NCBI RefSeq assembly: GCF_032062105.1
Contig: NW_026925206.1
Location: 62,001 to 126,000 of the forward strand
Reading direction: 5' to 3'
Length of the DNA: 64,000 bases
DNA from: Saccostrea cucullata
Lineage: Eukaryota
A program made the position numbers and the translations under genes. This document shows, piece by piece, positions 1,072-24,904 of the stretch (its first letter is position 1; each line of letters starts with the position of its first letter). The notes beneath the pieces are model-generated. The model was not told where the DNA came from. It did not search any database and worked only from the letters and a program-made list of their open reading frames with translations.

Positions 1072-4000
1072 ATGTTACTAAATTTGCTGACTTTCTTCGT
1101 AATAATTCATGGTAAGAAACATACCTCATTGTGTGTTATTTTGTTTTGTTACTTTTTTGAAAATTGCATACGATAAAACCCAAAATGATAACCCAATAGT
1201 AATAACTAGGCCTAAAACCAGTAGGCCTAGCCTTCTGAATATCGAAAATTTTTATTTGTTTGTGTTTTGTTCAAGAAACCCCTATTTTCACTGCATTTGT
1301 TTTGTTATAAATTAGACCTATTGTTCTATTTCTTAATAAATAAGGTTTATGTTCGAACACATGCACATGTTCTGTAATAATTACAATAAAAAATTAAATG
1401 AATTAGACAGTATCCTCCCTCTATTCTCTAAATAGAAATTATATGGAGAGGCATATGGATTTAAGCTTTTGATACATGTGCACTTCTCTAAAGAGAAATC
1501 TGGTCCTCCATGTACTTTTGGAATAGGGAATGTCCTCTCAAAATTATGTTGTACATACCACAAAGCTTGACAGCTAGTATGTACCTAAAATCAATAATTT
1601 TATTCTCCCCTCCCCATCTCTCTTCTTCAGGCTCATTTTGTAGTTCTGTTTTGAGAAGAAAATATTAGATGCATCGGTGTAGCCTGATGATCAAAGTCTA
1701 AGCTGATCAATATGATAATTTCTAGAATGATCTGATGTCATTTGAAATGGTGATTTAAACTGTACCATGTTTACAGTAAATAACTGCATTATGCATCTCA
1801 CCAAATTATATGCATATGGTAAAGATACATAATAGTCTTTTGTTGCCCTTGTGTGGCAGTGGTAAGAGTATTTGCTGGAGTTGCGAAGTAAGGAATTGAT
1901 CCTTATGTCACAGGTTCAGATCCCAAAGAAAAAGATCCCTCACTGCTTAATGGCCCTGAGTGCAGAGTATCTGTAGCTATATAAGACAAAATTTGCAGTT
2001 ATCCACTGGCAAATGGTGGCGCTGAACAAATCTCATAAGGGACATTAAACAGTATACAAACAAACAAAACATAATAGTTTTATTCAATGAAGTTGCATTT
2101 CACACAGAGGTCTTTACTTTGCACTTGCATACATGCCAACTTTCCCGATTTAGGCGGGATCCTCCCGATTTTACCCTTTCATCCCGCCTTCCCGATCAGG
2201 AGAGAAAAATTGCCCTAATTTCCCAATTTGTAAAAATTCACCCAAAATTTCCGATTTTATAAGTTTCCCTATACCGCTGAATTTTGTCAATTGGGATAAC
2301 AATATCAGACTTGTTTATTCAATGCACACAGATAAGTTTCATTGTTTATTTAGGTGTTAATCAGCCACAGGAAATCACTTCACGCTTGAACGCATGTCCA
2401 GGTACAGGTAGCTTATAGCTTGGGGCAGTTAATTAGGGGATTGTCTTTTCAGTTAAAAGGGTACGCAAGGTGAAACACATAATAATTGTTAGTCATTTTA
2501 TTGAAAACATAAATTAAAGACAACTAAATAATAACTAGCTGCAGATCTGTAGCGTTATGGTTTTATATATTTGTCTTTGACCATAACGCTACAGATCCCT
2601 TAGTGCAAAAAAGGTGCAATTTACGGCGCAATATTTTTTGCGCACTTTTGGGGAGAATTTCTCCACTTCCTAGCTTTGGTCAATCAACTACCTTTCACTT
2701 TCTAATTCTAGACACATTCTGTAGCCAATATGTATAGTTTATCCACCTCCCAACCATTTATAGTTGCATGTCTCTACAGGCAATAAAGCTGGATATGAAT
2801 TTTCAGATAAATTTAACAAATAATTTTAATCAAGCGAGTTTATCACTTGTAGAGACGACTATAAAGGGTTGGGAGATGGATAAAATATACAGATTAATTA
2901 AATAATGTGTCTAGAATTAGGGGTTGAAAGGTAGTTGATTGAACGATGCTGAAAAGTGGAGAAATTCTCCCCAAAATAGCGCAAAAAATATTGCTCCGTA
3001 AATTGCACCTTTTTTGCACTACGGGATCTGTAGCGTTATGGTCAAAGACAAATATATAAAACCATAACGCTACAGATCTGCAGCTAAATAATAACCAAAC
3101 CATAAAATTGGAATCCAAAGAGATCGTTATTTGAAAACGAAAGTAGAAAACTACAAAGCATAGCTGCTGACTTTATCTACCTATAATTAAAAAATATTGT
3201 AAAGTTTGCCAGTTAAGGTTATCCGATCCTCAGGTTCCGAAAATCAGGCATTAAGTAATTGAAAATGCTCACAAAGACGTCTCTAAATTCTCAAATTAAA
3301 ATGTATTTACCCACGGTGTTTCTTTAAATTTCATCTTTAAATTTAATCATATTATATAGGGAAAATTAGTAAATCTCAAATATTTTTTTCAGGAAATGCG
3401 ATTTGAACTACCTACTGCATATTTTTTAATTGATAATTGATCAAGAAATACATTTTAGGAATATAAATCATAGGTATCCAGGCTTTTAAAGAAAATTGCA
3501 TGAATTTTACACTTATTTAGTACTTTACTTTCTCTTTCTTACTTCCATCGTTTCATAATGCATAGTGTATGAAGTGTTTCCTTTCAAAGAAAACACCGTA
3601 AATCACTTCTAATTTCAAATCATGCTTATAAACATTGGTAACTAAGGCTAAATTAAAAGAAATTTGATTTCTTTAAAATATGCAAGGTTTATTTAATGTT
3701 ATGAGGTACAAAAGTCAAATTTTTTTTATACCGTTTGTTAAAACTTTAAAGAGCATTGAATCATACGTAGAGGCATAAAATGAAAATTGTTGCATAAAAA
3801 AATTTCAATTTCAAGCTTTATTTAAAGACTTTTTGAATTAAATTATAAATTTAGGAGTTATCCTTCCTGGCTGAGGATCGTATATCCTTAAAATAACATG
3901 AAAAAAATCCTGATGAAATAATAAAGTCTGTGTCAATTAGAATTTCTTTTCCCTCCCTTCTCCCAAAAGTAATTAATATTGTATGCATAAGTGACTACGA

Positions 4001-7000
4001 AATACCCACATAGCACCATCAAGCCTGCCAAAGTTTGACTGTAAAAAAAATAATTTTCCCAGGATAGGTGGTATCTTTGTGTTAGAAAATTGATGATTTA
4101 ATTCTTCAAACCTGATGGTTTATTTCTTTGAATTGTTTTGTGTGTGACATAAAATTAAGTGTTTTAATGATATGTAACAGGAAAGGAGAAAATGCATGGC
4201 TGGACCGGGAATCGAACCTGGGACCCCTGTATCTCTAGTCAGGTGCTCTACCAACTGAGCTGTCCAGGCCGATATCCACGGCCCAAACCATTACATTCCT
4301 CCCTCCTTAAATGGTCTTCGTCCTCGAAGACACAACCCAAGTTCTTATTGCCCCTGGCAGGACTTTCACCTGCAATTCCAGGGGTGGTCAACGACACCAA
4401 ATCTGTAACAGGGAAGGAGAAAATGCATGGCTGGACCGGGAATCGAACCTGGGACCCCTGTATCTCTAGTCAGGTGCTCTACCAACTGAGCTATCCAGGC
4501 CGATATCCACAACCCAAACCATTACATTCCTCCCTCCTTAAACAGTCTTCGACCTCGAAGACACAAGTTGTAGGGCCCTGTCAGGAATTACTAATTTACA
4601 CATACACTGTAACCTGAACAAGGCACCAAATGTAATGGGAGAGGAGAAAATGCAGCGGACCAGACCGGGATTCGAACCCGGGCCCCCTGAAACTCCAGTC
4701 AGGTGCTCTACCAACTGAGCTATCTGGCCAACAGGTTCGAATCCCGGTCTGGTCCGCTGCATTTTCTCCTCTTCCGTTACATTTGGTGCCGTGCCATGCC
4801 CTGGAATTGACAGGTGAAAGACCTGACAGGGATTCTGGGTTGGGGTCTTTGGAGGGCCAAAGACCTTTAAGGAGGGAGGAATGTGGCGGTCAGCCGGGTT
4901 CGATCGCCGGTGGCCAGATAGCTCAGTTGGTAGAGCACCTGACCGGAGTTTCAGGGGGCCCGGGTTCGGATCCCGGTCTGGTCCGCTGCATTTTCTCCTC
5001 TCCCATTACAGATAAATGTACATACCATGAGGAACAAACTTTCTCATCTCCCACACAAAAAAATAAATGCATTGCAATTTCTCAAAATTTCTTTAAATTT
5101 AATATCTGATTAGAATTTCTAATTAATTAAAATATAAAAATCTCAAAAATGTTCCCAGAAACAGTACTTTACGTATCAAAAGTTGTACAATTTTCAATTT
5201 TTCATCAATTGAAATTATGTGTCTTAGCTTGTAAAAAAAAAGTTTACATATGTAACTAAATATCCCTTCTTTAGTGAGAGAGGCACCTATTTGAGCAAAA
5301 AATATTTCAATTTTGGAAAGAAAAACCTTATTTTTGTGTTATTTTTATCTTTTAGTAGTATTAATAAGTGATATTGATTATATTATAAATTTTAAAAAAA
5401 GGACCATGTCATAATCATTTAATTTCACGACAAAATGTTGCGAATTTAAAGCTATGAAAAATGTCGTCACGCGCAAAATCCCCCATGGGAATTTTCAAAA
5501 GTTGGCATGTATGCACTTGTCACTGCATAATTGTAACAGGTGAGCAGAAATACAAAGAATCAGGATTTGAACCCGCTCCCCCCTTGAATCTTCAGTCAGG
5601 TGCCCTTCCCACTTAGCTATCTGGCCACTGGCCATCAAACCTGTCTGAGACACAGACCATTACATTATGATATGAAGCTTTCAGGAAAAGTACACTTATA
5701 TGGATGGACAGAGAGGAATACTTGGAAGGGAATGTTTACTGTTGTAGTTTTACAATGGGAATATTGATGTTAAAGCAATGGTGTTCTTATTGTATACTTA
5801 TAACTTGAAAAACAGATCTGTTTAAATTTTAGAAAAAACAATGCCTCGATCTTTCTATACTTATATTGTTTCAGTTTTCCAATACACACTATAATTTACT
5901 TGACACATTGATTTCTTGCTTAGTATCAATTGTTTGTACGTATTTTAATAATAAACAAAAAGTTCATTAATCATACCAGTAAATGATCATTATTGGGCAT
6001 GGTTACAGAGTGATCAAGATGTGTCAGAGTTTTTTTTCCCCCTCTAACCCCATGACACACGAGGGTAGTGGCGGGATGCACATTACCTGGGTGCATAATT
6101 GATTAATTAACAGTAGCATGCTTCTGAGTTACTTTATGATGTTCATGTTTAAAGGAGATAATCATTGGCAAATCTCTTAGGATTATTTGGTTGATGCATT
6201 TTTCATAAGGAGATCTAGTCATGGACCCCTAAAGGAAAAAAAATGTTACAGCAAAGCCTTTTGATTAAATTGATGAATTGTAGAACTGAGGAAAATTACT
6301 CTCAAAGGAATTCAGACAGATCCATCTTTAAAGAAAGAAAAATTCATACATATATATCTCATTTTTCAAATGTGTATATATTATGTTCATTATCATGGTT
6401 ACATTAACGATATAGTATTGATCTTTACATTTGAAAGAGGAGATAAAGAGAAAATAAGAAAGGGAGATAATTAAGAGAGAGGGGGATAATAATGATTGAA
6501 ATGAATTCATGTCCCGAGGTATAAAATAACGAGGAAGTATTCATTATCCTGAGCTTGCTCAAGTGACTAAACAGCATTTCTCAGTAATCATGAATGTCTT
6601 TTTTTCTAATCAAAAGTCAGTAAAGATGTGAAATACAATACCACATAGCAAAATTTTAAATTAAAATCATTGATGAAGATAATGCAATGTTAATTGAGAA
6701 GGACACTCCTCCTTAAAATTGTTTGGTTTACCCAATCAGATCTAGATCACTTGATCAATCATTGTGTAAACTTTAGAAAAGAAATAGAATAGAAATAATC
6801 ATGTGATAAAAGAATGTGACTATTACTATTATCATTCATGTTAATTAAATTTTCATGACTCTTTAAATAATTCCATTCTTTCTGAATATGCTCCATTTAA
6901 GAGCTGAAGTGTGATGATGCTAATAATCAGCTAAATCAATATGTCTCTCTGTCTCTTCCTTCAGTGACACTGAGCCTATTGACATTGAGGGGCCCATATA

Positions 7001-21745: not shown

Positions 21746-23942
21746 TCACATGAGATCAAACTCGGCTTCGATGTAGACATTGTTAGTGATATCCAATTCT
21801 TCAATTCTTATCTCTGTCCTTCCAAAGTATACTTTTGTCTTAAACTCCACGAGGTCGGGCCATCCCTTCTCTGGTGGTTGGTTTGTTATTTTCCCTACTG
21901 GTTTTATTCCCTGATCTGTGATAAATGTTAGCTTATCTCTCTTGATATCTTTTCCAGCATAGATTGCTGTTTGTAGTGGTATTTGCTTTCGATCTGCTTG
22001 CCTATGACTGCTCTTTAAGAGACAAATCTTTGGTTCATCATATTTAATTTTTTTTCCTTCGTAAACGAGAACAAAAAAGATATCTTTGCAGACCACTTCA
22101 CCGTCTACAATAACTCGCTTCTCTTCTGGATGCCTCGATTTATCAAATTCTTGATGTACCTGAATGCCATACGTATATCGACATATACGGAATTCAACTT
22201 GCTCTGGATTATACCCAAATATGACTGCTCCCTGAAGAACTGCCAGGCCCGGATCTTTGGGACAACAGAAGTTGATATTTGAGAAATCAGAGTGGGATTT
22301 TATTTGTTCACATAGATACTTGGAACAGGAAAATCCTCCAACGAGAAGAATTTGATCTAAATGTTTCACTTCTATTAGAATCTCTTTTATCAGATGTATA
22401 ATATGAGTCTTTGCTTCTTCAAAAAATTCTTTGAATTTTGAGTTTTCTACGTATAAGTGATCAAAAGTAACCGAATCTTTCTCCGATATGCTTGTATTGG
22501 CAAACATTTTTAATCTACCCGGTAATTTAAGTCGAATATTTCCATAAGGTACATTACTTATTTGTCTTTTCTGCATTTCAAATTCCCTTTCCATATCAAA
22601 TGCATCTCTTGGAGCAATTTCCCACAATTCTTGTAGACATGATTCGTTATTGAAGACCATTTTAACGTATTTCTCGAATTCTCTGTCAACTGTTGTTCCT
22701 CCCCAGTTGCCACCAGAAGCCTTATAAACTTCTGCTAGTCTACCATCTTCTAAAACTTCATGGACCACAACATCAACTGTTCCACCTTTCAAAAAAAAAA
22801 TCAATAACAGAAAGATAATTTTTCATTTCAATCCATTGTTCAAGTCTAAATTTTGAATATCATCCCATTGCTCTTTTGCAGGTTGATGTATTACAGTATA
22901 ATTAATATTTTTTTGTTATTTTGTCCGAACTAAAGAATACTTTAGATAAATCAAGGTTTTCATTGAGCAATGTATTTATGTTTGGTTACCCCCAAGATCC
23001 AAGACCATGTATCTTTTCTTTGGTTTAAATGTTTCTGTAAGTGTCTGATCGGGTAGAGATTTACAGTACATTGCTGCAGCCTCTGGTTCTAAAGCAATTA
23101 AAAACTGTGCCTCAGGAATCCCGCTCTGCAATTTGCGAAAACATAAAAGATTCAGGGTAATAGAGTAAACGAATTTACCTTGGCCTTTTAGTATTAATTT
23201 GGTGGAAAATTATATGATAATATAAATTACAAGACAGAGTCAAAATATCTAATTTCTCTCATTGAATTATTTGAAGCCCTTTAGTACCTTCAAAGCAGCT
23301 TCTTTCATGAAGAGTTTTGCAGATTGTCTCCAAATTGCAGGTACTGTTATCACATATAAAATGTTGTTTTTATCAAATGCAAGAGACCTGTCTTTCACTG
23401 TGGATTCGAAGTGATTTTTTAGGGCCTGAATGGCCCATGCAAAGATATCTAAAGCTGGAAGTGAAAGTCTACCAGAGTCATCCTTAATTTCTATACTGCG
23501 TTGAACATTCTGTAATTAAACAAAGCATTAACAAGTTGAATGCTTTTATCTTTTAAATGTTACATGTAGGAAGGAATAGAGAAAGAAAAAAAATACTTGC
23601 AGTTTCCTCATAAAGAATCAATTTGAAATTTCTGAATCGATACCAATCTTCGTGGTTCTTTTGGCAGACCCGCTGTGCATAAAATTCCTCTGCTTCGTAT
23701 CCAAAAGAATGAAAAGACTTATCTTTGTCAACAAGAACTGTAGTTGGTGCTTTGGCCCTCGGATCTGGGACCATGTTTCCCATCCACTGATTCAGGGAGA
23801 TTGATTTTGTGTTTATTTCCTTTTTATCACAAAAAGCATAACCCGAATTACTTGTTCCGATATCAAAAGCCACCACAATATCCCACAAATCTCTAGGAGG
23901 CACTTCTGATACTTGAATCCCGAATTTCTGTTTGGGATCCAT
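21746..23942 (-). CDS. HSPA12: Heat shock 70 kDa protein 12-like, copy B, ~579 aa
   Basis: Exons 23942-23601, 23509-23288, 23125-22990, 22785-21746 (1740 nt, open). Motifs VVAFDIGTSNSGYA, KAPTTVL, VITVPAIW, IALEPEAAAMYC, YMVLDLGGGTVD, ASGGNWGGTTVD, LLVGGFS, LAVLQGAVIFG, CRYTYG. The intron 1 donor is GC. Confidence 0.93.
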
Positions 23943-24290: not shown

Positions 24291-24904
24291 TTCATATCAA
24301 TCTATTCAAAACGATATAGATATTACAGAACATTATAAATCGAGGAGATAGACACTATGATCAAACAACAGATTACATAAAATATTTTCATCCCATCAAG
24401 TTAAAACTTAAACTTTCCAAAACGGATTCTTTGAAAGACATTCTCAGGAAACAGACTTGAACTGTAAATAAGTTAAACCTCTTTAAAACATATTTGTGAA
24501 GGCATATCTCTATGTGGCCCACACAGCTTGCGTTTTAACATAATTATCTTGCAAATAGACATAATTTTGCATATTGACATATATTTTTCTTGCTTGTTAT
24601 CATAATTTATTCTGTATGTAGGGGGCACAAATATACCACCGTAGTATAGTGGTATTGACACATATACCTATATCCTATTTTTAGGTGCCACTTGGCTAAA
24701 CGCCAGTGATCTTTAATAGAACTTTATTCATAGACTCTGTACGAAAATCTGTCATCAAAACATCTTTTTTCGGTAGAATTTTAAGACAGCCTTGCATGGG
24801 TTTAATGTATTTTCATCAAGAATAGGTAAAAAAAAATTGTATTTACTAAGTTGTAAAAATATTGATTATTACAGCGAATTATGAAATACCGGTAAAGTTT
24901 TTTA

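Follow-up and report, generated by a model that had tools for sequence, protein, structure and literature searches.

A head-to-head chimera of Helenus-1, -2 and -5, likely joined in reverse transcription and inserted once through two U5 ends

Helenus elements are TRIMs that carry a tRNA cassette in the LTR (Kojima 2024, PMC10886601); Pol III transcription from the cassettes of Helenus and TRIMp3 is presented as a prediction in that paper, which also reports tandem arrays for a fish Helenus family. One locus in a 64,000-nucleotide stretch of Saccostrea cucullata DNA (the window) raises the question of how two arrays of such elements come to face each other in opposite orientations, end on both outer sides in an LTR 3′ end, and are flanked by the same four bases. 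Here we propose, with considerable confidence, that the locus is an inverted chimera of three Helenus families that was likely joined in reverse transcription and likely inserted once, by a Gypsy integrase acting through two U5 ends.

Direct reading of the sequence and mapping confirmed what the earlier note had described, a head-to-head composite at 4173-5010 with U5 at both outer ends and GATA on either side (Table 1). The outer termini read TGTAAC... on the left and ...ATTACA on the right, and both are LTR 3′ (U5) ends. When the pieces were compared by eye, rather than by alignment, with the consensuses in the supplement of PMC10886601, the right arm and the central LTRs matched Helenus-1_SaGl, the left arm Helenus-2_SaGl and the internal domain at 4527-4630 Helenus-5_SaGl; the LTR at 4882-5010 agrees by eye with the published Helenus-1 consensus at 127/129 positions. 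In the parts of the paper available, these three families resemble the pieces of the window in LTR and internal sequences, tRNA cassette, PBS, PPT and 4-bp TSD. The chimeric nature proposed earlier therefore stands, whereas the count of two TRIM subfamilies does not, because three published families are present and 4527-4630 is a different internal domain.

Table 1 Features of the inverted composite and its host transposon (window coordinates)
Position	Strand	Feature	Remarks
2128-5513	.	Non-autonomous DNA transposon, 16-bp TIRs, 6-bp TSD (2122-2127, 5514-5519)	Host of the composite
4169-4172	+	Left TSD copy, GATA	Sequence reading
4173-4295	-	Helenus-2-type LTR; its U5 forms the left terminus of the insertion; tRNA cassette 4197-4269	Family match by eye
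4296-4403	-	Helenus-2-type internal domain, His-type PBS and PPT	
4404-4526	-	Second Helenus-2-type LTR; tRNA cassette 4428-4500	
4527-4630	-	Helenus-5 internal domain; own 5′ end and PBS swapped for a 7-nt His-type PBS start (4622-4628)	
4631-4730	-	Helenus-1 LTR positions 30-129, without U3; whole tRNA cassette (4657-4729) and U5	
4731-4734	.	Inversion junction, 4-nt stretch common to both arms	
4731-4781	+	Helenus-1 LTR 3′ part; 4734-4781 runs from the T-stem to U5	
4782-4881	+	Helenus-1 internal domain, His-type PBS and PPT	
4882-5010	+	Complete Helenus-1 LTR; its U5 forms the right terminus of the insertion; tRNA cassette 4912-4984	
5011-5014	+	Right TSD copy, GATA	

The component units are ordinary TRIMs, with two LTRs ending in TG...CA and a short non-coding internal domain; they measure 229-232 bp, within the limit of about 1 kb, and occur as ordinary copies genome-wide. 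The composite departs from a canonical single TRIM, which has one U3 end, one U5 end and direct LTRs, in having two U5 ends and inverted arms. All four cassette-bearing LTRs gave Rfam tRNA matches (40.7-62.2 bits), and ARAGORN called a tRNA in three of the four without settling the isotype. The Helenus PBS matches over 9-10 nt a tRNA-His(GTG) gene that was verified in the genome, and a PPT precedes each LTR. The two Helenus-2-type LTRs differ at 4 of 123 positions. In the Helenus-5 domain the swapped PBS start is attached over a 3-nt GCC microhomology, and a Helenus-2 LTR, not its own, then follows. Among the matches listed, 20/20 other copies of this domain retain their native LTR and another PBS; in the window, the PBS is replaced exactly where mis-transfer is predicted to act.

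At the inversion junction, the shared stretch corresponds to LTR 26-29 on the minus arm and to 79-82 on the plus arm, with two of its four bases changed since. The earlier statement that the junction breaks inside the tRNA cassette holds for the plus arm, which begins in the T-stem, but not for the minus arm, which retains the whole cassette and stops just upstream of it; the extent of this minus-arm LTR would be that expected of minus strong-stop DNA. The hairpin arms (4619-4678 and 4734-4793) are 60 nt long, 95% identical and include the PBS start, and 4632-4781 folded as DNA reaches -65.6 kcal/mol (z -16). Rfam miRNA matches to this hairpin all lay below the gathering score, and a miRNA identity was rejected.

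The composite lies in a DNA transposon that measures about 1.25 kb when empty and holds further nested repeats: one at 2529-3093 with 236-nt inverted arms, and a high-copy repeat at about 3600-3893 (2292 first-look candidates). A query of 3600-4172 matched only a nested repeat; 3900-4172 gave host paralogues. All eight paralogues with both ends detected, some of them possibly duplicates, have a 6-bp TSD, a length reminiscent of the hAT6 group.

The earlier note expected empty host copies to be contiguous around one GATA, and this is not the case. Each of the five paralogues that cover the site has 14 more bases and none has a single GATA, and an exact-flank pattern search for the empty site gave three matches, all with extra bases. 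This finding speaks for two independent Helenus insertions in opposite orientations about 14 bp apart, with GATA/GATA arising by chance and a later deletion, which took out the two U3 ends along with the intervening host DNA, fusing the pair. The arms also belong to different families, and a 17-nt inverted homology between U3 and T-arm could have served the deletion. We nevertheless consider this explanation improbable. In the paralogues the corresponding bases are GATT to the left and (T)GTA to the right; either copy of GATA draws bases from the two sides of the 14-bp gap, a pattern that fits a deletion first and a duplication afterwards. One earlier deletion and a duplication would thus suffice, whereas two insertions need two further flank changes, both creating the match by luck. 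That the earlier deletion fell exactly in the target is a coincidence in itself and counts against a single insertion.

The window composite is one of about twenty inverted joins in the genome. An initial genome search yielded four further inverted sites. A head-to-head pattern of terminator motifs returned 37 sites. Of these, 18 are scorable composites (that of the window included) and 1 is a double inversion; another 12 are not composites, 2 are duplicates, and 4 (L035, L043, L081 and L115) were left out of scoring because their ends are decayed or missing. The mirror, tail-to-tail pattern returned 12 sites: the double inversion again, 3 tail-to-tail composites and 8 sites without Helenus inversion. 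Both patterns need both motifs exact and their gaps are unequal (400 and 300), so the counts and the 18:3 ratio should all be read as minima. Other inverted TRIM composites, which the earlier note proposed to seek in the genome, were thus found as 17 further scorable head-to-head cases, 3 tail-to-tail cases and 1 double inversion. The exact U5 motif occurs 606 times; the matches listed (100) represent 65 sites, at least 3 of them of mixed orientation, and C3836, a known composite with one inexact motif, is a fourth such site among those listed. On these figures, roughly 5% of sites with young U5 ends are inverted.

Exact 4-bp TSDs flank 10 of the 18 head-to-head composites and at least three of four bases match in 13, leaving 5 with two or fewer; the exact share becomes 10/22 if the four decayed composites count as misses. 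The tail-to-tail composites (L050, L052 and L053), which have two U3 ends, have a TSD in 3/3 cases, and so does the double inversion (1/1). Unrelated flanks of the family match at four bases in 24/930 pairs (2.6%) and cross-pairs among the composites in 1/306, giving a binomial probability of 5e-12 for the excess of exact TSDs in the 18 head-to-head composites, or 1e-10 without the window site. Ordinary Helenus insertions have the 4-bp TSD in exact form in 23/31 cases, a baseline that may include one duplicate pair (L023/L024), and the composites do not differ from them significantly (10/18; Fisher p 0.22). The doubt whether the GATA match is due to chance is thereby largely met at the level of the class: the single site provides modest evidence and the class strong evidence. 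Two independent insertions would leave each such match to chance, at 2.6% against the 10/18 observed.

Amplification of one ancestral inverted element was considered and rejected: arms and flanks differ from site to site and, although junction positions recur, the whole structure is shared only in two duplicate pairs. These pairs (L002/L003, 98.4% identical over 3.5 kb, and L032/L034) are diverged and probably allelic copies. The scored composites are therefore unlike a MITE or foldback element, in which one inverted structure is fixed and multiplies as a family. Two sites have a MITE-like look, being minimal palindromes of LTR 3′ parts only: L116 (1414-1586; 173 bp, TSD CGTG) and L112 (1162-1205; 44 bp, without TSD). 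In L045 (1268-1719) and L115 (1399-1646), two whole LTRs are joined end to end, U3 to U3; L045 has a second inversion, normal outer ends and the TSD GAGA.

Among the mapped head-to-head junctions, the arm boundary lies in the T-arm (75-95) in 13/17 and at LTR 26-39, a stretch around the 5′ end of the tRNA, in 6/17; L001 and L017 were re-read by eye, the aligner having extended into the U3/T-arm homology. The window junction and that of L017 lie at nearly the same place and have CCGG in common. Positions 13-29 of the Helenus-1 LTR, in U3 (window 4894-4910), are an inverted near-copy of the T-arm and make a second T-arm/B-box-like near-palindrome, so the breakpoint hotspot could reflect DNA homology rather than an RNA 5′ end. 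Five junctions join a Helenus-1 LTR to a Helenus-2 LTR, for which two molecules are most simply needed.

Copies of the primer tRNA provide a further indication of when the joins arose. All three tail-to-tail junctions start at a copy of the tRNA-His 3′ end, of 18, 13 and 39 nt. These exceed the 9-10-nt PBS of the family, and the extra bases therefore likely derive from copying of the primer, as happens for plus strong-stop DNA; the end of the 18-nt copy fits what we take to be the modified A58. In the head-to-head composites L031 and L083/L158, the arm adjoining the central palindrome bears a tRNA-His copy, as does that of L076 when read by eye. The window junction lacks an extended tRNA copy. 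Such extended copies make up 10 rows among 74 contexts and 4 of these 10 are in ordinary elements, so they are not specific to inversions and PBS mis-transfer is common in Helenus. Three ordinary Helenus elements (L009, L130 and L133) have the PBS lengthened to a 17-22-nt tRNA-His complement with loss of the adjacent internal bases, which reads as a mis-aligned second strand transfer. Taken with a Gypsy chimera enclosed in one TSD, the junction copies make it likely that the inverted junctions formed during reverse transcription; two independent insertions leave both these copies and the PBS swap at 4622-4630 unexplained. The origin suggested earlier, in which template switching or cDNA joining gave an inverted chimera that integrated through two U5 ends, is thus supported by tRNA-primer copies at several junctions and by a class-wide TSD rate far above chance and like that of ordinary insertions.

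The Gypsy chimera, L158 (G000:C4640, 2239-4906), consists of an inverted Helenus-1 composite followed by a 17-nt tRNA-His copy, four unmatched bases and the 3′ half of a Gypsy element, with TTTA/TTTA around the whole. The Gypsy part comprises the pol 3′ end (integrase C-terminus), a PPT and an entire 978-bp LTR. A Pfam search of the integrase fragment gave nothing useful, and domains were assigned from an intact relative, L199 (G000:C276), whose RT, RNase H and integrase follow the Gypsy order and which has a 4-bp TSD. The last nine bases of the LTR of this full-length relative are those of Helenus-1; its PBS differs and is, we assume, of Lys type. The L158/L199 family is a candidate helper for Helenus. 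We regard L158 as the best single evidence for joins among co-packaged cDNAs, and packaging would then disregard primer type. Gypsy helpers were inferred from PBS similarity only in the available parts of PMC10886601, whereas here a His-primed Helenus is physically joined to a Gypsy element with another PBS.

Rebuilding at the DNA level is as unlikely an origin as two separate insertions. A single ordinary insertion would have given the TSD, after which the U3 side became a U5 end, either through a nested antisense insertion combined with deletions at microhomologies or through template switching of replication at the inverted T-arm/U3 homologies. Antisense nested insertions are known, as the available text on EVD describes (PMC11624286), inverted homologies are present in the LTR, and the right end of the composite has eight terminal bases in common with a Helenus-2 U3 end. 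The process would, however, require that a deletion run exactly from end to end at each site with a TSD, even at the all-Helenus-1 L017, whose ends share only three bases. Fold-back during replication would invert the flanking DNA and not leave a direct TSD, and neither the 17-39-nt copies of primer tRNA seen at junctions nor the Gypsy chimera is readily derived from chromosomal DNA. An assembly or library artefact from a fold-back chimeric read is very improbable: although, of 22 public sequencing runs listed (best word share 0.33), contigs of X1, X2, X3, X4, X5 and X8 carry the Helenus families and no piece spans the locus flanks at 99% or bridges the junction, the arms come from different families, 2/48 mirrored bases differ, the host flanks are contiguous, there is a TSD, and two other composites exist as the diverged duplicate copies described above.

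For an origin in reverse transcription, we propose the following course. Pol III transcripts of several Helenus families, starting near the tRNA cassette, would be co-packaged in one Gypsy particle. A minus-strand cDNA that reaches the RNA 5′ end (LTR 26-30) would skip the jump to the 3′ R and instead pair, over at least four bases, with its own T-stem (79-82) or that of a second minus strand, and then copy the strand so paired; across the class, a minus strand stalled at the T-stem may also use itself or a second minus strand as template. Once extended onto the tRNA primer, the product would be a palindrome at the centre, flanked to left and right by a copy of the PBS. A 'second strand transfer' could then follow from either flank, each to a different full minus strand: on the right to Helenus-1 via the PBS and on the left to Helenus-5/-2 via the GCC microhomology. 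The linear product would have two tRNA-generated U5 ends, which the integrase would accept and insert with a 4-bp TSD. Joins of plus strand to plus strand would produce the mirror class with two U3 ends. At the window site, self fold-back and two-molecule priming are both possible. When the minus arm ending at 4734 was folded, its 3′ end was not placed on the T-stem (z -0.73) and paired there only with U3 included, so fold-back is possible but not energetically favoured.

Several elements of this course have precedents. The 'complex' insertions of Sabot and Schulman 2007 (PMC1950507) likewise fuse two parents in reverse transcription into one insertion with a TSD around the whole, as in the composite of the window. 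As far as the available text describes them, they run head-to-tail with near-identical outer LTRs and normal U3 and U5 ends, and number 2 among 400 LTR insertions; here the joins are inverted, unite different families in the window, have U5/U5 or U3/U3 ends and occupy at least 3 of 65 sites among the matches listed. Similarity also exists to Cassandra (PMC7215508, PMC4079214), biv-TRIM (PMC6934838) and sugar-beet families (PMC13570524), with their LTR(n)-internal(n-1) arrays and their reshuffling between families, and in the available portions of those accounts no inverted single-insertion composite was seen. Self-priming of HIV-1 minus strong-stop DNA, in which a 3′-end hairpin is extended by RT (PMC6088434), is a known reaction and supports an inversion born in reverse transcription. 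Its products are, in the sections available, in vitro dead ends that are suppressed by nucleocapsid and undetected in particles, which counts against such an origin; here comparable products appear to have been completed and integrated, with a hairpin from a tRNA-derived R region. The words 'inverted', 'head-to-head', 'chimer' and 'palindrom' do not occur in the main text of PMC10886601, and a literature search, which covered little of the older virology where inverted proviruses might be found, gave no report of inverted TRIM or Helenus insertions with like ends. Helenus elements, head-to-tail template-switch complexes, tandem and chimeric TRIMs and strong-stop self-priming are known, and inverted TRIM insertions with like ends are apparently new.

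If this reading is correct, a Gypsy-type integrase in a natural genome accepts U5/U5 and U3/U3 end pairs, and supposed dead-end intermediates of reverse transcription can become germ-line insertions. It would also give LTR retrotransposons a route to palindromes and MITE-like hairpins such as L116, possible sources of dsRNA or instability, which LTR finders requiring direct repeats would overlook. Which autonomous element moves Helenus, and how strict the pairing is, are left open in the available text of PMC10886601; chimeras that physically record co-packaging, here across primer types, provide a handle on both. More tentatively, we suggest that the tRNA cassette of Pol III-type TRIMs may make strong-stop DNA a double-headed linker, such that self- or cross-primed cDNAs are completed and integrated through two like ends in about 1/20 insertions, splicing families with different primer tRNAs and even the helper Gypsy. 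The genome would then record which RNAs shared a particle, and the family could supply its own silencing RNA through the hairpins.

Other repeats lie near the composite and further along the window. An old solo Helenus LTR (5532-5664, minus strand) whose flanks match at 3/4 bases sits 18 bp outside the host transposon. A large imperfect palindrome at 24900-27300 has numerous nested arms in inverted orientation and, internally, a 610-bp duplication, and diverged copies of a 2-kb segment are found at 21746-23894 and 30119-32241, 8.35 kb apart.
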